DNA of 48,649 nucleotides, from positions 248,001-296,649 of the forward strand of contig BCIN01000004.1 of assembly GCA_039545335.1 (NCBI GenBank), in the 5' to 3' direction. The notes under the pieces were generated by a model. That model did not search any database, was not told the DNA's origin, and saw nothing but the letters and a program-made list of their open reading frames with translations. Made by a program: the position numbers and the translations under genes. The DNA is from Kondoa subrosea (taxonomy: Eukaryota). This document shows positions 1,097-48,096 of the stretch, one piece after another (position 1 is the first letter of the stretch; each line of letters begins with the position of its first letter).

Positions 1097-2588
1097 ATGT
1101 CGAGCACTACTTGGGTGCGTTTCATCATCGCATCATCGCGTTATACAGAATTCCAATCTCATCCTTTATGCGAACAGGAATTAGGGACAGCTAAGGTTAA
1201 TTCACCCACTATTGTGTCGAAAGGAGCTCTGTTGACGTATTGCAAGAGTAGATTCTGTCGCGAAAAGCATTGGACAGCTCGGAAGCGAAATGGTGAGCTC
1301 ATTCCATGTCATCTGATTCTTGCTTGTCTGAGTAATTCAATAGGTGAGATTCACGCGATGCAGTACCAGTGTGACATTGATGCTGAAGACAATGAAATCA
1401 CAGGGTTTCAATGGAAGCGCTCAATGTAAGTCTTCGCTCATGCAAACCTTTTCGCTCGATTAACAGTATATTCAGTGGGTAGATGAAGAAGGTCGACACG
1501 TAGGTACCTTCACTGTAACTCATTCTTCCTTCATTGGTTTCATGAAATAGCGAGTTTGGGAATCGACTTCCCGTAAGACGAGGAAAGGTTCAGGCATAGA
1601 TGGTTTGTTCCTTGTCTGCTTGTTGCTAGATTAGCTCAAGCAGATAGAATATAAACAGCCGTAGCGGTTCGTCGAGCTATTGCAGACTCAGATTCGGTTC
1701 TGATCTGTTGGTTCCATGTGAACAGATCTTCGCCTTGATCAAAGCGCCTAAAAAACCTTTGTCCACTGTATTGGTTATGCAATACAGGTACATCTCTAAA
1801 CCTGTCACGACTGCCGTGCTAAGCAAGGGAATATAGACCACCTGTGGACCGAATTTGCGTGGAAATGCCTGCTGGTTTAATTGACGAGGGTAAGCAGACT
1901 CATTTGTCGTGAGGACATCACTTAACAGGCCAAAAAAGGCGAATCGCCCGAAGAAGCAGCAGGTCAGCAGGTGTCGATCCGTCAGCCTACGATTTATGTT
2001 GAGTATTGTGCGCGTTGACAGTCCGCGAATTGAAGGAAGAAGTCGGCTATGAAAATGTCACTGTACACGAGAGCTCTGGCATGTCAGCCGGCGTCGATCA
2101 TCAGCATGTTCATCCGCTGATAAAGATGCCGAACTTGACAGGATTGTTACGTATGTTTCGCACTCGCTTACAGTCATCATACTCAATCGTTTCGTCAAAG
2201 TGATCCGGGAATGAGCAACGTCAATATGTCCCTCGTCACAATCAATGTAGATGTCAAAGAAGACGAACCAGAACCAGAACAGAAGCTTGATTCAGGAGAG
2301 CATATCGTCAAACGCTTAGTACCAGTTAAAGGTGAGCGAAGCTATAACATGATTCCAGGCTTGCTTGACATGTACGGTAGATTTGCTCAAAGTCCTCAAA
2401 GGTCAGTCTCCAAAGCTATTAATGACGCATAAATTGATGTCTGCGCAGAGTACAACCAGAAAGAGAGTGAGTTGTTCGGTTGATCAGGATTTGCGCATCT
2501 AATGGTATCAATTGCAGACTACGCGGTCGATGCGCGCCTATGGCATTTGGCTCAAGGCCTCGATTTGGGTGCATCTATGCTTAAATGA
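1097..2588 (+). CDS. YSA1: Nudix hydrolase, ADP-ribose pyrophosphatase (Ysa1/NUDT5 family), with many small exons
   Basis: Manual splicing gives MSSTTWELGTAKILSRKALDSSEAKWVSMEALNWVDEEGRHRVWESTSRKTRKGSGID...[37 protein letters not shown] (Nudix box)...DPGMSN...YAVDARLWHLAQG. Confidence 0.9.
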
Positions 2589-2689
2589 ATGCTTGCACCG
2601 AGAAAGGAGACTTCAGCAGATGTGTATAGTAATGAGGGTATGCTGCAATGCAAGAGATACTACGTAAGCTAAACGAAAATGTGCACAAC

Positions 2690-5447
2690 TCATTCCTCTA
2701 TGCCATTCCAGATCGATTTCTCCTCATCTTTTTGGTTATTTTCTTTCTCAGCTGGAGCAGCTTTCTTCACCTTCTGCTTTCGAGCTTTTGCATCGCCATG
2801 AGCATTACTTTGAGTTGTTCCGATGAATTTGGCATGACCTGTGAAGCAGTAAGCAACCAGGAAGTAGCCTAGAGCAAATCGACATTGACTCACTTGTCTT
2901 CTCCAGCATCGAATCGGCGAACTTTGCTTGTCCTCCTACACCTGCTGTGATGTACTTTGCCGAAATACCATGTCGCATCAAAGGTCTGGCTAATTCTTGA
3001 GCAAGTTCAGCTTTCAAAGCAGCTACTTTGCCTTTCGACTTTGCGTTGCCTAGATTGCCACGTTCATCATCCGAGCTAAAGGCACATCAGCAAAAGTCCG
3101 GTCAGCATTGACGCAAGCTTACTCTAAATTATCAAGATCAAGCTCCATGGCTTCTGCAGCTTCTCGCAGCCACTTCTCCTCGTGATTGGCTTTCCTGACT
3201 TTGTGATTTGCATTCTCAATTTGTCTTGCAAGATCAATACGTTTCTTCAGTCGATCCATAATGCTCCATTCCACAGGCAATTCGCCGAGATCCTTGACAT
3301 CTAGGATTTACACCAATACTTTAACCATGTGCTTCAAGGAACCTTGAAGCCTGAGGACATACCTCTACCAAGACTGTTGAACAATTCTCGCTGTAGACCT
3401 TTCTCTTCTGGCGAGACCAACTGAAGCGAAACACCTTCTCTACCCGCTCGAGCCGTACGACCGCTTCTGTGAATGTACGTGTCTGCCGTTCTTGGTAATT
3501 GATAATGCACAACATGATGCACGGAAGCGATATCCAAACCTCTTGCGGCTACATCAGTACAAAGCAAGACGCTAGTTGGGGAAGTTGAATTGGTGAACCG
3601 ATCCAAAGCTTTCAAACGAGCTTTCTGTTGCATTCCTGAGTGTAAGAGACCGACTTCGCCTAAGTTGAGAACGGAGATGAGTGGGTGAAGTCGACGAATA
3701 CCGTCAATGCTGGAAAGGAAGACTAGTGTTTTGCCAGGATAGCGAAGGAGAAAGTAATAGAGATGCATGTCCTGAAAGGCGGATTATTACACGGCGACAA
3801 ATAATGCCGAGGCGGGACTAACCTTTTCGGTCATGAGACATTCGATACTACATTCTTTCAAGGAAGAAATTGTTGAACCAGCTTCAATGAGATTGATGAT
3901 TTCCGGCTCAGGGTCACGAAAGTCGACAGTGTCCATTAAGTCACCTGCCAACAGAGTTCAGTTTTGCATTGTCAACGCCTGTTTCAGGGCGCACCTAGAG
4001 CACCCATGGTTCCCTTTTGGCCAGGCTTTATCTTCGCTCGCTTATGTCTAGGTTTCTTCAGGTTTTTCTGCAATTCTTTGCTCATAGTTGCAGAAAAGAC
4101 ATAAGTCCTCAATTCGTTCTTATTTGGCTTGACATCTTCTTCTTCAACTTCATCCTCTGCTGCAACAGCTTCGCCAAAATCATTTTTGAAAACATCAGCT
4201 TCCCTGTTAGCCAAAAGCGTTCTCTAAGCTGCATCCAGCAGCTAGAAGCCAACTTTGACCAACCTTTTCAGCAAACGGAACACTTTCTCCAATTCGGCAA
4301 AATGACCGCTTTCGACCATTCTATCCGCTTCATCAAGAACCAAGAACCTAATCCCTTTGATTTGTTCGCCAAGTCCATTGGAATCCGTATCTTCTTCAAT
4401 CAAATCCCATAATCGACCAGGAGTAGCCACCAATATATCCACACCATATCCAATTTGTCTTCTTTGTTTATGAATTGACATGCCACCAGTTATAGCTAAA
4501 ATATTAATTGGTGCTCTTTTACTTTTCGCTTCTTCTGGGTTTAAAGAAGCAGCTAAAAAAGTAACTAGATGAGCTTTGACTTGTAATGCTAATTCTCTTG
4601 TTGGTGTTAAAATGAGTGATTTCAAACCAGGACCAGGGTTGGTTAAACAGGATTGTAAGATAGGTAAACCGTAAGCTAAAGTTTTACCAGAACCGGTTTG
4701 AGCTATACCGATTATATCTCTTGCTTCTATTGATCTCGAAGTAGAAGAGAAAGCAGTAGACCAAGTGGAAGATTGAATAGGTGTTGGTTTTGTGAAATTG
4801 AGGGAGAGGAAAGCGTGCTTGAATGGTAGCATGAATGGTAAAGATGCTACTTCAGGGGAGCAATTTTCCGGGAGAGGCAGTTCGTTCATAGATGCTATGA
4901 TCGGATCGGGAGTTGTGAGCTGTTCTGCAGATTCGTGTTCAAGAGGTTCCGTGGGAAGTTGCGAGATAGAAGCAGGTACCCATTCTTCTTCTGCTTCCTC
5001 TTGTGGAACAAATGCATCCTTCTCAGCCTGGTCTTTATTTTGAGGAGTCAATTCCGTTTGATTGTTAACAGAGGCAGATATATCTTCTTTTTCCTCTTGA
5101 TCGAAAGCAGACACAAAGGTATCGTCGACTTCCGAAGCTCCTTCAGCATCGTTTGCTTCACTTTGTGAGCCAATCAAAGCCAGATCTTCGTCTACCATAA
5201 ACTTGACTGTTTTCCCATCTTCGCCGTAAGCTACAGTAACACCTTCAAGCTCTTCCATTTCCATCAAGCCGCCCATCTCATCATCCGAAAATCCCTCGCC
5301 TATAGCTAGACTGTTCAATGCATTCTGAGTTGAGATCTTCTTCCAAGGTAAACTGCTCGCTTGAACAGAGACTCGTTGTCTCTTCTGACTAGATCCATTA
5401 CTACTACTACGGGAAGCCTTGGATCGCTTTCGCTTAGTGGCCAGCAT
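2690..5447 (-). CDS. MAK5: DEAD-box RNA helicase Mak5/DDX24 (60S biogenesis), multi-exon
   Basis: Q motif (PTPIQ), [26 protein letters not shown] and HRSGRTAR are present. The Mak5-type N-terminus reads 'LPWKKI...[12 protein letters not shown]'. Confidence 0.9.
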
Positions 5448-5619
5448 AGCAGACTGTTGTAGCAGGTTAAGGAGCAAGTTTTTATTTTTCTACTTTGTTC
5501 AGTTTCGTCCATCGCATATACCCGTTCTTGGTTCTGGAGCATACTCCTTCGCTGTATATCCCAAGCCAGACTGTGTGTGGCTGACAGGATTCCCCTTTCA
5601 CTTCTTTGGACATCCTTCA

Positions 5620-8600
5620 ATGCTTCGATCTTTGAATGCATTCAAACGATCTTTTGTATCTTCACGTTTCCGCACAGCTTCAACAGCCGCAACAACGTCA
5701 ACATCATCAAACAATGGATCCTCTCAATTCAGACCCATGGGCAGCATTCTGCCTTTGCCAATGCAACCTACCAGTACAATGACACCTTTTGCTCAACATG
5801 CAGCTTACCCTTCTTCTTTCTTGGCTGAACAAATTGCAATCTTGTCTGCTTGCTTAGCTGGCGGCCATTTGGCAAGAGCAAAGAATTTGTGGGATCGCTT
5901 AAGGAGAACTTATTCTGAAGAAGTGCAGACTCCAACATCTGAAGATCCAGCTGCTGGAATAGCAACATTGAAATTTCATCAGATCGTTCCTCCTTCAGTT
6001 CATGCTTCTTTTCTTCGAGCTTTCTACAGAGACGCTTTGAATTCAAGAAGTAGGACATCTCGTACAGTCAGAGATGCTTGGGAATGGTGGGATATGATAG
6101 TTAGAGAAGGAGATGATGTAGGATATCCTCAAGCTGAAGCTTTTGCTGTCATGCTCAAAGGAGCTGTGTCGTGCGTTTATTACAAGTCTCCTCCGACAAA
6201 GCTTGACAAGTCTGGCTTATGCAGGACAATCAAAGAAGATGTCACTTTAGTGGACCAGAGAGAGAAGATAGCAGCTTTGGTCTCCCTTCTGCCTACTTAC
6301 GATCTTACCCTTTCTTTGATTCTGTCCAATCCAATCTTCAGCTCTTCAGCTCCAGCTGCTCTTGGTCCAGTCAGCGCTGACGAAGTATTAGATTATCTGG
6401 ATACCATTACGATTGTTACTGGCCTCGAAACCAATCTTACAAGTCAAGCTCGTGGCCAACTTTATGAGCTCGAAAAACCAATAGAGCCAGATCAAGCAGT
6501 CAACACCACCGCCGCGGAACCAACTGTCGATCCCTTACTGAATGTTCCTCTTCTGTCGCCCACAATGAAGCCAGCTCCCTCCAATGCAACAGATCAGACT
6601 CAAGATGATCTACCAAATCTAGAACCTACTATTCCTGGTCGACTCGATTCTTTGCGATCGCATTTAACTTCTATAACAAGCCAAAGAACCTCTTTAACTG
6701 ATCCACAACTTCGACAAAGGTTTCTGGAAGAATCGGCTTACGATGCAGCAAGGTTACAATCCGAAAACGAAATCTTGACAATGAAAGCCAATTCAAATGT
6801 GGATATCACTTTAGCTTTAGCTCAAGACGATGTCAAATCCCTCATGTTTCGATGGACGAACGGTTTAAAAGCCAAATTGGATGAACTTGTTGATCCTGAA
6901 AAAAATCCTGGTCGAATCGTCAATCTCAATTCCTTTCGAGCTTCTAATTCACTTATTGAAGCTCAATTCTTATCTTTGGTACCTACTGAAAAAGCAGCTT
7001 ACTTAACCGTTGCTGAAATACTAAGGATGCAAGGTTTAGGACCAGTACATGAAGGTACTACTATTGCTTCAGCTTGTGTTAACGTTGGTAAAGCAATGGA
7101 AAGAGAATATCAAGCTCAAGAAATCATGAAAAGAGATAAAGATCGATACAAAAGAAATATGGAACTAGCTAAATTAGGCATGTTAGGTACTGGTGGTCAA
7201 TATGCTGAATTGGGTAGAATGTGGAAAAAGGAGTTGGGAAAGAAAGAAGAGGAAGATAAAGCTGCTTCGGATTTGGAAACTTGGACTCATGTCATTCGAG
7301 TTCGGATTGGCGCTGCTCTGATTTCAGCTTTGATTGATACGGCTACCATCACTCGTAAAGTTACTAAGATGGAGAAGGACGAATTTGGACAAGAGCACCC
7401 TGTGGTCCAGTACGTGTTTGAGAGTGGTGTGAAAACGTTGATGATCTAATTTTGCATCATCAGTTCTGAACAGCAACCTGCTTTTATGCATTCGTATCAA
7501 TACGTTCGAGGTACCAAGCTGGGCGTAATCAAGTGCAACACTGCTCTCATTGAACGTCTCGACCGAGATCCCTTAAGGGTCATTATACACCCCCGACAAC
7601 TTCCCATGATCATCCGACCACGGATCTGGACTGATTGGAATTCTGGGTGCTATATCGTTCATCGCAGTACGTTCAAAAATCTGCATGGATTGAAACGACA
7701 TTGATTTAGTATGTGATCAGCTGAAGTCATGCGCATCCGAGACTGTCCAGAACAGCTACAACATATCAAGAAAGCTTCGGAAAACAGAGAACTGGATTCG
7801 GTTTTTGCTGCACTTGATGTCCTTGGTTCTACAGCTTGGTCCATCAATCGCCGGATATACGATGTTGTCAGTGAAGTGTGGAATCGAGGCGAAGACATAG
7901 GTGGAATGCCAATCAAGGATCCTCTGCTCACTATTCCAGACCCACCCCGACCTTCTAACGTCGAAACTGATCAAGTTGCTCGAACGGACTACCGGAGAAG
8001 AATGAAAGAAACTGAACTGCACAGAAGAAATCAGCATGCCGACAGGTGCACCATCAACTATAAATTAGAGATAGCCAGAGCAGTCAGTGTCGTTCAATCT
8101 TGCTTTAGTCTGGCTGATTTGCGCACAGTATCTTGGCGAGACCTTCTACTTCCCACACAACGTCGATTTTCGAGGCAGGACGTATCCTATTCCTTCTCAT
8201 CTGTCCCATATCGGAGACGACATCTCTCGTGGTCTACTACAATTCGCTGAAGCCAAAACCCTGGGTGTATCCGGTCTCAAATGGCTGAAGGTCCATCTAG
8301 CCAATACATATGGGTACGACAAGCAAAGCTTGGATGATCGAGAGCTTTTTGCTACAAATCACCTCGAAGATATAGCTGATTCTGCCGAGAGCCCTCTCGA
8401 AGTAAATGAAATTTTTTTCGAACATAAATCTTGTTCTGACTTGATTCACCAGGGAAAACGCTGGTGGCTGAGCGCAGAGGATCCTTGGCAATGTCTTGCG
8501 GCCTGCATTGAATTGACAGAGGCACTAAAACTCTCTGATCCTACGTCTTTCAAGTCACAATTGCCAATTCATCAAGACGGCACTTGCAATGGTTTACAAC

Positions 8601-23777: not shown

Positions 23778-26700
23778 ATGTCCTTGAGGAGTGCTCTGTC
23801 TTCCGAACCAGGCGATGGGCACAACAGAACTTCAAGCATTGGAAGTGTGCTGAATGACGATAGAGTCTATCAGTTCGCGCTCCGTGTAGCTTACTTGGCC
23901 TACATTACTACGGTCAAGCCTCAATCAGAGCCACCTGCTACACCTACACAAGCCTCGGTGTCTGCTAGCTCAAATGCAGGACATAACCGAACTCTGTCAA
24001 GAGGTGATGGCTGGACTACTGCGCTGAATTCGTTGGGCGATATCTTTGGTCCTTCACGCTCAAGAGAAGGTGTTCGCTTTCCGAAAGAATTCATCAAGGC
24101 TTTAGGAACGAAAATTCAAGCTATTGCAACAGGATCAGATCAACAACATCGAGACGAACTCTTCAGAGCTACAGTTGGAGCTTTCTATGGATCTTATAAT
24201 AATCCTATGATTCAGAAAAACTTGAAAGAGAATCGTAAAGTGGAAGAATTGATCATTACTTTCGTCTCTTCTGCTCAAGCTGTGCTCAAACGTCGTTTTC
24301 CTGACTCGGAAGCATGGAAAGACTTATTGATGCAACATGTGGGACTCTTTGTAGCTGTATTAAGGGATACACTACGAGGAAAGGATGTAGCGCAAAGGCA
24401 TGTGTCGAAAGAATTGATGGACCGACTCAATTCGTACCTCGAACGACTGTCTTCTTCGACACCTGCTACCCCGAATTTGGCTGCCAGTACCATTGGGGAG
24501 GGATATGTCTCTGTTGAACCGCCAATCGCATCGACAAGCGCTACACCTTGGTCTGGATCAGCATCTATACAAGACATGGAGATGGTCAAGCAAGTTGGAG
24601 TGGTTTTCCACAAGCCAGATGCACAATTGCAGCGAGATATGATTGCTGTCAAGAGGATATGTGATGAAAAGGTAGCTTCCTGCTTGGATTGGTAATCTTC
24701 TTGCTTACTGTGTTTCGTCCCTCTCCCTATAGATAGCGCTACGAGATCTCAAAACATGTATAAGCCTCGTCAACCAAAATGCTAGATTTCCTGGACGAAG
24801 GGAAGACTTTGATTCGGACGATGCGTACCGAGATTGGCGCAAAGCAGAACTCGACTATCTTCAGCAGCAAATTCTTACCCTAGCAACGGTCAACCGCGAT
24901 GCCTTCCGTTCAGAACAACGCATAGCACCGACTACTCCTTCTACAAATGGTCGACCTATTTCACTTTCTGTTTCCACTTCCAGTTCATCTGGTTTTGCGG
25001 GATTTTTACCCTCGCCACATGCTCGCACACCCTCTCTTGGGGGACGTGCATCTGCTCTCGACTACTTCTCCACTTCGACGTCCACTCCTAGCTTAGCAGC
25101 TTCAAGTACACCTTTTTCCGATGACAGTGGGTTCCAATCAGAAGAGGTGTTAGCAAACCCTGCACAATCTTCTGCGGAAACGCCAGCTGCGGGCCAAGAA
25201 TTCACATATATTCCTCCGGCACCTCGGTTATTTTATTCTCGTTTGCTCGATATTTGCTTGGAGTATGATTTGGACGTATTGAAGAATCTCGAACCAGACG
25301 AAGAAGTGTCTTTACGAATCTTATCACGACAAAATAGCGCCCTGCTAGCAGAATGCGCAAGTCGTTGGCGTGTACAACCGACGACCTGTGGTGTTATGTT
25401 TCTGGAAGCAATCGCGCAGAAATATCAAACAGATGAAGTGCCTCTTATTCAATGCGTTGTGGAAGCTATGCAGGATGTGCAAAAAGCGGCAGAATCATGG
25501 GATTTTGATAATTGGATCATTGTTGACGTAAGTCCAGCTTTTGTTTTGCCCCAAGCATCGTCTGATGCTAACGTCCGACAGCGTCTTCAATTGCAAGATG
25601 TTCTTTCCTCTCTTTTTGATACTCTGATACGTAGAATGTATGACGCTGTGCAAAATCCAGACAACATCTCGCCAGATGAAGTACACCTCTTGCACGAAAC
25701 AGTCGAGCAAGTGCACAACAACCCACTCTTCCAAGAAGGCCCCGCTCGCGATCTGCCTCAACGTTTCAAAGAACTTCGAGAAGCTATCGAAATGGTTGCA
25801 GCTTATCAGTATGATCAAAGGCGGCAGGCTAGTCTTTACACGCCAGCCGTCGCGCAAGATCCGCATGCATATATCATCGAGCTGCTACGATTGCTCGATT
25901 GGTTCACGAGTGCTGTACAGAGAATAGACAAGCTTTTCCGGGTTCCAGTTCTTGAGCGAGTTTTATCTCACATCTTTCTTAAAATAAGCTGATGTTGGTA
26001 ATGGTAGTCAAGTAGACTTCACTTCTATCTATGTCTCTACCTGTGCACCGATGTTTACAGAAGATTTGCAGCAGAGCTCCCAAGTTATATCTCACCTATT
26101 ATCTAATCAACAACCACCTGTCTCGGAAGAAGTATCTGCCAAGCGAGAGAAGGATATTCGTGCTCTATACGAAAGTGTACGCGAATTGCTAAGAATGCAT
26201 AAGGCTTTCTGTCAAGAGTCAGTCAAAGTCTGTTCTCCATTGCATCGAACTGATCAGTGATCAGGCAAGAACTCGATATTGATCTCATGCCTTTTGAGCC
26301 GTATGTCTACAAATGGCTCGCAGCGACGCATGCCAAGACGCTCGATTGGGTCCAACGTGCTGTAGGCGCTGACAAAGTGAGTAGCTATCATGATTATTAT
26401 TTACATATCATTGATGTTCGACTTCAGTTCGAACCGGAAGGGTCAGATCACCACAGCTCATCTATCGTGGACTTGATCGAATCATGCAAGTCAGCAGTCG
26501 CGTTCGTGCAGAATCTAGAATGGCCTGATCCAGTCGCCAACGCACTCTTTTTCACGCGCTTGTCGCACGTATGTCTTTCCTTAAGCTTTTAGCTTGTCTC
26601 AACGCCGATGCTCATCTGTCTCACAGACAATTTCTAAAGCTATCGAAGAATACTGTCAAAAATTAGAAAGTCTCTTCATGTCGGAAATGTTCCCGATAAG

Positions 26701-45421: not shown

Positions 45422-48096
45422 CTACTTCCTGTACTTGTCGCAAACGTTCTTGTTGAAGTATTGAGAAGGGTCTTTAGTGAGCAACCCTTGTTCAACCGAT
45501 TGAACGTAATCCTGCGGAGCTGTCATTGACTGTTGGATGACAGGGGAGAGCAGGAGAACTTACTCTGTAGACCCCTCCAATCTCTGTAAGATTTGANNTG
45601 CCGAACTTNGAGCCTCTCTCGAGCTTGAAATTCCAGAAGAACCAACCACCACCTGCCTCGAATATTTGCTTTTGAGCGTCGCCAAAGTCACGTATGAAAG
45701 AGGCGTTAGCAGGGACCATAACGTCCTCCGGAGCCAGCCACCATTCGCCTCTGTTACACTCTCTCATGTAAAGCAAGAAGATAAACCGGAGGTATCAACT
45801 CACGAAATGACTACAATANACAAGTCAGCTTGGGTCTCACGCGAAGGATCTGGGCTTACGAGGAGTGTTTCCGCGTGACGCTTCCTCCTTAACACGGGGC
45901 CAGTCTCACGAAGCACAAAAGTCAGATTAAATGATCACGTTGGATATTTGTAGGACTGACTGCAGATAGTTTGCATGTAGCTCTCTTCGGTTGGTTCAGG
46001 AGCGACGTATCCGACTACAAGACCCTTTGAGAGGAATTGTATAGGCGAATACTATACGTACACGAAAAGTAAGGATCTGTACTACTAATCAGTCATGTAT
46101 CAAGAGTAGGAAAATGACGACGCACGGTCATCGTACTGCGCAGGACCGTTGACAAACTTCTCTGGGTTGTTAATGAAATCAGGTGCTTGCCAGCCAGACG
46201 ATTGGTAGGCTGTGACGAGACATCCCGGGAAACCCTTTTGCTTGATCGGGAACTGTTTGGATTGGGTGCGAGGTGAGACGAGACCGAAGCGCTTGAAAGT
46301 TTGCAAAGTCAATTCTTCCGTTGCGGAATCGATGCCTGGAACTGGAATTGGTCTGCTGGCGCCTTTACCAGGACAGTCCATGCCGACCTGTGACCTATGT
46401 GAGAAAAGCTCTGACGAGTATGCGAGCTGAAAGACCTACGTAATCCTCAGCTCCTCGAACCACATCAGCAAAACGCTTGTAGTCTATCAGGATGATCAGT
46501 CGGTATACTGAGAGCAGGTAAGTTGAGACGGAACTCACAGTCTCCTAGACCCGGTGTTCGCGTGGTGTTTTGCAAAGGCTCGTTTATTGGTTGAATCTGC
46601 TACAGCCATCAGGACACAAAAATGAAGCATTGCATCATAACGTACAGCATAGGTCACTAAAAGCGTCAATCAGACATGTGTCATCGAAATCTAGCAAGAC
46701 CTTACTAGAGAAATCTGGATCGACATGAATCAGAGCAGTCATCGCACCAGCCAATCGGAGAGCTCGTTCGTAATTCTTGGGTTGGTAGAATTGAACATCG
46801 CTAGTGCAGCGGCCTTAAATGCACAATGCAAGCTCTTGCACACTCAGCTCCAGATCACAAGACTCACCTGCGAACAGTTGGTTTTCGGAACTAACGCCGG
46901 GAAGCTAAGAAGAGATCAGCGAGGAAGAGAGTAGCGGCGGTGAAATGTCTTACAGCGCTGTAATACGAAGGAACATGGATGAGTCAATGCTGAGATCAAA
47001 CGATACCTGGACTGACTGCAAATCGATCATGGCCCACTGCAAGAGTTGCGAGTCAGAAGAGCCATAGCTCCGGAAAGACAACNTACAATTCCCTGTTTCT
47101 TGAGCATAGCAACGACTTTCTTCAAATCTTCGAGAGTACCATTTGGGTAGTGCTCATCAGGCTCTGTTAAAGCACAGTTAAGGCCTTGATCCGCGAATAC
47201 TTAGAACCATATATACCCTTAAGCGATTCGAATATCCAGAAACCGATAGGGATTCTGNNNNNNNNNNNNNNNNNNNNNNNNNNNNNNNNNNNNNNNNNNN
47301 NNNNNNNNNNNNNNNNNNNNNNNNNNNNNNNNNNNNNNNNNNNNNNNNNNNNNNNNNTCTGTTAAAGCACAGTTAAGGCCTTGATCCGCGAATACTTAGA
47401 ACCATATATACCCTTAAGCGATTCGAATATCCAGAAACCGATAGGGATTCTGAAGACAGCATACCATCAGCCTTATCCCTTTTTGGCAGGAATCCATCTC
47501 ACCTGACAGCGTTGATTTTCAATTCCTTGAGCTTTGCTGCATCGGCGGCTGTGAACCAGGAAGCTCGATGCTGGACAGGTCACATCAATGGAGCTCCTCG
47601 CAGGAATGCAAGTTCAAGAGCACACCTTCTTGAAAACTGCATCGGCCTTGGCTTGACCCAATTTTTGAGTTAATTGGTACTCGTCCATGACGCAGTCCAT
47701 GCAGCTACCACAGATTTCGCCTCCCATCTGTGGTGATAACGATCTCAGCTCATGCTGATCTCATCTCTGCGGCTATTCTCACAGCTTTCCATTCGCTAAC
47801 ACGCATCAAAAGTGTAAGTAGGAGCGAAGAAGCACAAATTTGTCAGAGGAACTCGCCTAGGGAACATCCAAGCTATGTCAGTCAAGAAGATCAGACACGA
47901 GCAAAACCGGAATGAACCAAGACATACGTTCAGCTACGAATAAGGACCCTAGATTGACACCATAGGTTTTGCCCGGAGCCGGACCTAGAGCTGTAGTTGC
48001 CCGTTTGGAGACGGCATGCTGGATTTTTGAGAAGGTAGAGCCGTGGTCTGCGAGTGCGAAAGGCAGAGAAAGAAGAAGCAGAGTTGACAAGCGCAT
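45422..48096 (-). CDS. Secreted glycoside hydrolase family 5 (exo-beta-1,3-glucanase-like), multi-exon, spanning an assembly gap
   Basis: Signal peptide, YGVNLGSLFVAE, RIPIGFW, IDL(H), INEP (acid/base), GEWWL (nucleophile) and QKQIFEAGGGWFFWNFKLE. Confidence 0.88.
47163..47452. other. Scaffold gap (100 N, 47258-47357) flanked by an identical 95-bp overlap
   Basis: 47163-47257 is identical to 47358-47452, as expected for unmerged overlapping contig ends. Confidence 0.9.

Follow-up and report, generated by a model that had tools for sequence, protein, structure and literature searches.

The 111 nucleotides that interrupt a tryptophan codon in a YSA1-like gene of Kondoa subrosea are best read, going by their sequence, as one intron position made up of two abutting short U2-type units, each of which would be competent alone, with a zero-nucleotide exon between them. 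We tentatively propose, at slightly less than an even chance, that a detectable share of transcripts would remove this interval in two steps, with the 5' unit leaving first. The anatomy of the interval, the strength of its signals, and the final junction in two relatives are observed, whereas the use of the internal sites and the order of the steps are inferred. In what follows, the window is the whole stretch of 48,649 nucleotides that was analyzed, and all positions are those of the window.

The host gene was modeled by coordinates. It has the following extent and includes 2 microexons, both of which the reading frame requires:

1097-2588, + strand: coding sequence of the YSA1-like NUDIX (ADP-ribose pyrophosphatase) gene, 16 exons, 15 introns, 210 amino acids
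1659-1666, + strand: microexon of 8 nt, also carried by L001, a relative's spliced contig
2142-2150, + strand: microexon of 9 nt, present in the same spliced contig

In this coordinate model, the spliced coding sequence is 633 nt and open, with ATG at 1097 and the stop codon at 2586-2588, and all 15 introns are GT-AG. Intron density is extreme, with 15 introns for 633 nt of coding sequence and exons of 8 to 131 nt. Two metatranscriptome proteins, P0002 and P0001, were 94-95% identical to the spliced protein (182/191 and 195/208 aligned residues, respectively), and both carry the Nudix domain PF00293, as found in a search with a single exon (window 2202-2330). More distant homologues bear the source names "related to YSA1" and "ADP-ribose pyrophosphatase." The spliced translation also contains a 23-residue stretch with the form of the Nudix box. 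The region 1097-2588 thus probably encodes a YSA1-like NUDIX hydrolase, the family being assigned through near-identical database proteins with PF00293. A metagenome scan returned 191 stretches fitting a search pattern, 2 of which encode a relative (L001 and L002); both contigs are already spliced. L001, from a close relative, is identical at 517 of 626 aligned coding positions and covers every exon of the model, and this alignment to all exons supports the 15-intron gene structure. The 8- and 9-nt exons that an earlier sequence-only reading had noted in this gene were borne out, since the frame requires both and L001 has both.

The lineage is poorly sampled. The nearest relatives of the Nudix protein are metatranscriptome proteins with 75-95% identity, and its best named homologues, from Ascomycota and Basidiomycota, are just 50-56% identical. 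A tree of 25 Nudix homologues left the clade of the window unplaced on a long branch. Downstream of the YSA1-like gene lies a convergent neighbor on the - strand (window 2600-5489), and L001 runs at its positions 740-1770 from the YSA1-like mRNA into spliced antisense of this neighbor. Because the contig spans both genes, the two mRNAs of the relative from which L001 comes probably have 3' ends that abut or overlap. Farther on, an open frame of 686 amino acids (5389-7446, + strand) had one database relative within the lengths searched, at 55% identity over 58% of the query; this relative carries PF14700, presumably the N-terminal domain of a mitochondrial-type RNA polymerase. The window also contains 100 N at 47258-47357 and isolated N at 45597-45598, 45609, 45819, and 47083, signs of a gap in the assembly or of base masking.

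The interval itself and its flanks were read directly from the letters and contain the following features:

1252-1292, + strand: exon 3, ending GAA GCG AAA TG, whose TG opens the Trp codon
1293-1403, + strand: intervening sequence of 111 nt, phase 2, inside the Trp codon of AKW|V
1293-1343, + strand: 5' unit of 51 nt, donor GTGAGC, acceptor TAG (1341-1343)
1313-1317, + strand: CTGAT, candidate branch site with its A at 1316, a consensus motif just 23 nt from the donor
1328-1332, + strand: CTGAG, candidate branch site of weak motif with its A at 1331; its distances of 38 nt to the donor and 12 nt to the acceptor are the usual ones
1342-1349, + strand: AG|GTGAGA, the zero-nucleotide exon, where the acceptor of the 5' unit abuts the donor of the 3' unit (GTGAGA, 1344-1349)
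1344-1403, + strand: 3' unit of 60 nt, donor GTGAGA, acceptor CAG (1401-1403)
1377-1387, + strand: TTGAT with its A at 1380 and CTGAA with its A at 1386, which could serve the acceptor at 1403 as branch sites; counted from 1344 they are 36 and 42 nt away, counted from 1293 they are 87 and 93 nt away
1404-1425, + strand: exon 4, whose first G completes the Trp codon and is followed by GTT TCA ATG GAA GCG CTC AAT

Direct reading confirmed what had been claimed of this anatomy. The Trp codon in AKW-VSMEAL is split TG|G by 111 nt with all coordinates correct, and the interval does parse into units of 51 and 60 nt, the AG at 1342-1343 abutting the GT at 1344. The spliced contigs L001 and L002 both read AAATGG with the next codon immediately after, and the only junction in these 2 metatranscriptome contigs is of the final 1292-1404 type. 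In the two relatives, at least, the final junction thus agrees with the proposal. The donor at 1293, the branch candidates at 1380 and 1386, and the acceptor at 1403 are all uninterrupted in the genomic sequence. A stwintron was rejected, as no donor, branch site, or acceptor of an outer intron is interrupted within 1293-1403.

Introns in this neighborhood are short and uniform. The other 14 introns of the YSA1-like gene measure 47-63 nt and the 4 cDNA-supported introns of the neighboring gene 47-62 nt, so that the interval is about twice the local norm, which the sequence-only reading had put at 50-60 nt and which the other 18 cDNA-supported introns nearby set at 47-63 nt. Introns elsewhere in the window were called by a splice-aware finder that combines codon log-odds from 13 long open reading frames with terms for the donor, the branch site, the acceptor, and the length; its donor score omits position +6. 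It called 180 introns in the window, 161 of them of 70 nt or less, and recovered all 4 cDNA-supported introns of the neighboring gene, which was outside the seed set. In the YSA1-like gene it was exact on 12 of the 15 introns and mis-set two (1196-1277 and 1426-1482). It also split 1293-1403, through its own length prior, and this split is not evidence of two introns. Its long introns are unreliable because it fuses neighboring genes. At 26377-26497 the finder called an intron pair with a 1-nt exon that was false, the actual arrangement being one 51-nt intron (26377-26427) followed by open frame. This error illustrates the ease with which degenerate signals divide a sequence into two "normal" introns.

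Signal strength was scored with matrices from 106 introns, namely 92 predicted ones (44-75 nt, from well-scoring chains outside YSA1) and the 14 introns of normal length in YSA1; the percentiles are approximate, as the training introns are mostly finder-predicted. The local consensus among the 106 is a GTNNGY-like donor, a branch site that is mostly CTGAT, CTCAT, or TTGAY, and a YAG acceptor, and in 81 of them the branch A lies 34-46 nt from the donor. With the branch site limited to the usual spacing, the 5' unit scored 10.52 bits in total (56th percentile of the 106) and the 3' unit 12.19 bits (74th percentile). The acceptor of the 5' unit reached 2.51 bits (76th percentile). Among the branch candidates, CTGAT (1313-1317) scored 6.83 (68th percentile), the TTGAT and CTGAA motifs of 1377-1387 scored 5.58 and 5.30 (approximately the 40th percentile), and CTGAG (1328-1332) scored 2.99 (13th percentile), a G after the branch A being found in 3 of the 106 chosen sites. 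The internal donor at 1344 had 3.97 bits in its genomic context, and the donor that would be rebuilt by joining exon 3 to 1344, ATG|GTGAGATT, had 3.16 bits (43rd percentile). Both units thus resemble ordinary local introns.

The same scores also serve the main rival explanation, which holds a considerable probability in our estimate, below even: a plain single long intron, with donor 1293, branch A1386 or A1380, and acceptor 1403, removed in one step, its internal AG|GT being a chance occurrence that is ignored or used at noise level. Scored as one unit, again with the branch site at the usual spacing, 1293-1403 has strong signals (13.25 bits, 83rd percentile of the 106). The internal donor is of a minority type with A at +6, a base found there in none of the 19 cDNA-supported introns, all of which have C or T, and in 8 of the 92 predicted local introns (T 53, C 26, A 8, G 5). 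At a good position for a branch site the 5' unit has only a weak motif, and recursion is rare in both fungi that have been surveyed (10.1101/224170, 10.1101/226894). However, a single intron would have twice the very narrow local length, and its branch candidates A1380 and A1386 lie 87-93 nt from the donor at 1293, approximately twice the usual distance.

Chance expectation bears on both explanations. We simulated 40,000 introns of 111 nt with real ends and a first-order Markov interior. An AG|GT leaving both halves at least 44 nt long arose in 1,468 of them (3.7%), and such a frequency of suitably placed sites is in keeping with a single intron. In contrast, a split as good as the observed one in both halves arose in just 30 of the 40,000 (0.075%), which speaks against a single intron. 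Both halves reached the 25th percentile of local introns or better in 248 (0.62%) and the median or better in 37 (0.09%). On both strands of the window (97 kb of strand) there are 335 AG|GT sites. At 12 of these both flanking modules are at or above the 25th percentile, and 7 of the 12 are predicted donors and 2 predicted acceptors. At only two of the 335 do the branch and acceptor module upstream and the donor downstream both reach the median or better, namely 1343|1344 and a site at 46517 on the + strand. The latter, with donor GTAAGT, is probably a chance composite, because a predicted gene (46072-46901) occupies the other strand there. The split at 1343|1344 is more than chance for the window and not clearly so for the whole intron-rich genome. 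At 7.5e-4 per intron, about one such split per genome could be expected by chance if there were approximately 1,000 introns of 90-135 nt, a number that we assumed.

In the two-step removal that we propose, the donor at 1293 would pair with A1331, approximately 38 nt away and thus at the preferred spacing, and with the first usable AG, that at 1343. Exon 3 would then adjoin GTGAGA, rebuilding a donor (ATG|GTGAGA) that would be spliced to the acceptor at 1403 through branch A1380 or A1386. One-step removal from 1293 to 1403 would compete with this route. The mRNA, with 1292 joined to 1404, would be the same whether the interval left all at once or in two parts, with either unit going first. A route with the 5' unit first is favored since the spliceosome, in a species whose introns vary so little in size, would be expected to branch at a normal distance from the donor, since 1343 is the first usable AG past A1331, and since the rebuilt donor is of median strength.

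Several observations argue for two-step use. The local size norm is narrow, both units score as ordinary introns, and an equally good split appeared in so few of the simulated introns; one-step removal would need a donor-to-branch distance of 87-93 nt, as opposed to the usual 34-46 nt; and there are precedents in Cryptococcus neoformans (10.1101/224170) and Schizosaccharomyces pombe (10.1101/226894). Arguing against a working internal site are the A at +6 of the internal donor and the weakness of CTGAG, which is the sole branch motif at the preferred spacing, the better CTGAT lying only 23 nt from the donor. The very small number of proven fungal cases points the same way, as does a predicted fold in which AG|GUGAGA pairs with upstream UCUUGCUUGU, although that fold is no better than those of shuffled sequences.

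Each partly spliced form reads Trp and then TGA, so that use of the internal acceptor without a donor right behind it would be costly. The same feature could be turned around. The acceptor at 1343 could be an alternative, unproductive 3' splice site, such that the Trp-TGA transcript decays and expression is lowered, the GT behind it being incidental. Loss of the 5' unit alone would give an immediate stop, that unit has a competent acceptor module, and splicing coupled to decay has been reported in S. pombe (10.1101/226894). However, nothing points to regulation of this housekeeping-type gene, and a donor of median strength exactly at the junction would be left unexplained. We regard this explanation as very improbable.

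As to how the arrangement arose, two once-separate introns could have been joined, either by loss of a microexon or by gain of an intron exactly at the border of an old one. Such an origin would explain the double length and the internal site together; the gene does contain exons of 8 and 9 nt, and exon loss that merged introns has been described for an Aspergillus stwintron (PMC6616335). Nevertheless, the best 120 homologues out of 422 matches were aligned, and the Trp is invariant across all 120, none of which has a residue between it and the next one. An exon lost at this place could therefore not have been coding in any sampled relative. The sequence-only reading had suggested microexon shrinkage as a possible origin; the 120 aligned homologues hold no coding trace of it, and the shrinkage is unsupported. 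Furthermore, neither half resembles other sequence in the window, so that there is no hint of a mobile intron. Overall, we consider an origin by joining unlikely, at a low probability.

Other sources of the extra length were also considered. The two halves of 1293-1403 show no relationship, since 35 of 300 shuffles aligned equally well, and neither half matches elsewhere in the window (best E 0.24), in which no repeat was found; this, too, is in keeping with a single intron. As far as the window goes, an origin by tandem duplication or from a mobile intron was rejected on these grounds. Rfam gave no matches in 900-2700 at E up to 1, and the predicted fold had a z of -1.45, with 21 of 200 shuffles folding at least as well. 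A small RNA hosted in the intron, such as a snoRNA, was therefore rejected, and so was a structure that shortens the intron, the fold being no better than those of shuffles.

For fungi, the sequence-only reading had named stwintrons. That account was incomplete, as zero-nucleotide-exon recursion has been demonstrated in C. neoformans (10.1101/224170) and S. pombe (10.1101/226894). Burke et al. reported it for a 375-nt intron of C. neoformans BOT1 that consists of 210 and 165 nt, and proved the recursion by junctions, branches, and 3' ends (10.1101/224170). Chen et al. reported two zero-length-exon cases in S. pombe, for example the 336-nt intron of SPNCRNA.445 (10.1101/226894). In these genome-wide surveys, the proven cases number one in C. 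neoformans (10.1101/224170) and two in S. pombe (10.1101/226894). Like 1293-1403, the BOT1 intron belongs to a fungus with a narrow distribution of intron sizes, and its final mRNA has the outer junction only. However, its parts of 210 and 165 nt are long for the species and its recursion is proven with RNA, whereas the units here, of 51 and 60 nt, are of normal local size and known from DNA (10.1101/224170). SPNCRNA.445, too, is a fungal transcript in whose intron a 3' and a 5' splice site abut, and the piecewise removal established in S. pombe is what we propose here. It differs in being a non-coding snoRNA host transcript with a longer intron, and its site is conserved in other Schizosaccharomyces (10.1101/226894).

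Outside of the fungi, the ratchet points of Drosophila and the recursive sites of vertebrates share with 1293-1403 the juxtaposed AG|GT and a donor that is rebuilt after the first step (Duff et al., 10.1101/006163). In contrast to the 111 nt here, those introns are tens of kilobases long, and subdivision shortens a very long removal (10.1101/006163). The fungal stwintrons of Flipphi, Fekete, and co-workers resemble the interval as we read it in that two U2 introns form one complex intervening sequence in a fungal gene and leave by consecutive reactions (PMC6616335). The order of these reactions is obligatory, however, with an inner intron interrupting a signal of the outer one, whereas one-step removal of 1293-1403 would be possible (PMC6616335). 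The same source names another class, apart from stwintrons: "abutting U2 introns excised by recursive splicing." The interval would belong with this class as PMC6616335 words it, and the mark that defines the class is present as TAG|GTGAGA at 1341-1349. A limited literature search brought up no recursive intron that consists of two minimal-size units. At best, then, 1293-1403 is an unusually compact case of the zero-nucleotide-exon recursion already published for fungi.

For the AG|GT arrangement, an accident that a long intron tolerates is a likelier explanation than adaptation. A stronger possibility, which we consider unlikely, is that AG|GT could be a selected, obligatory ratchet, a strict donor-to-branch measure of approximately 35-45 nt letting an intron of double length exit efficiently only as two standard units. 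If this were true, no recursive intron smaller than this one (51 + 60 nt) would be known, and such an arrangement would offer a harmless route for intron growth, or for intron gain beside an existing intron. The protein product would be unaffected whether or not the internal site is used. If the site is unused, splicing can pass over a median-quality pair of acceptor and donor within an intron, a point that matters for the choice of splice sites. In C. neoformans, intron size predicts progress through both catalytic steps of splicing, and that study left as a question by what means a spliceosome that prefers a narrow range of sizes gauges the length of an intron (10.1101/224170). If the internal site of the YSA1-like gene is used, recursion in fungi would extend to two minimal introns and not just to unusually long ones, and the gene would be a compact test substrate for the measurement of length by a size-selective spliceosome.
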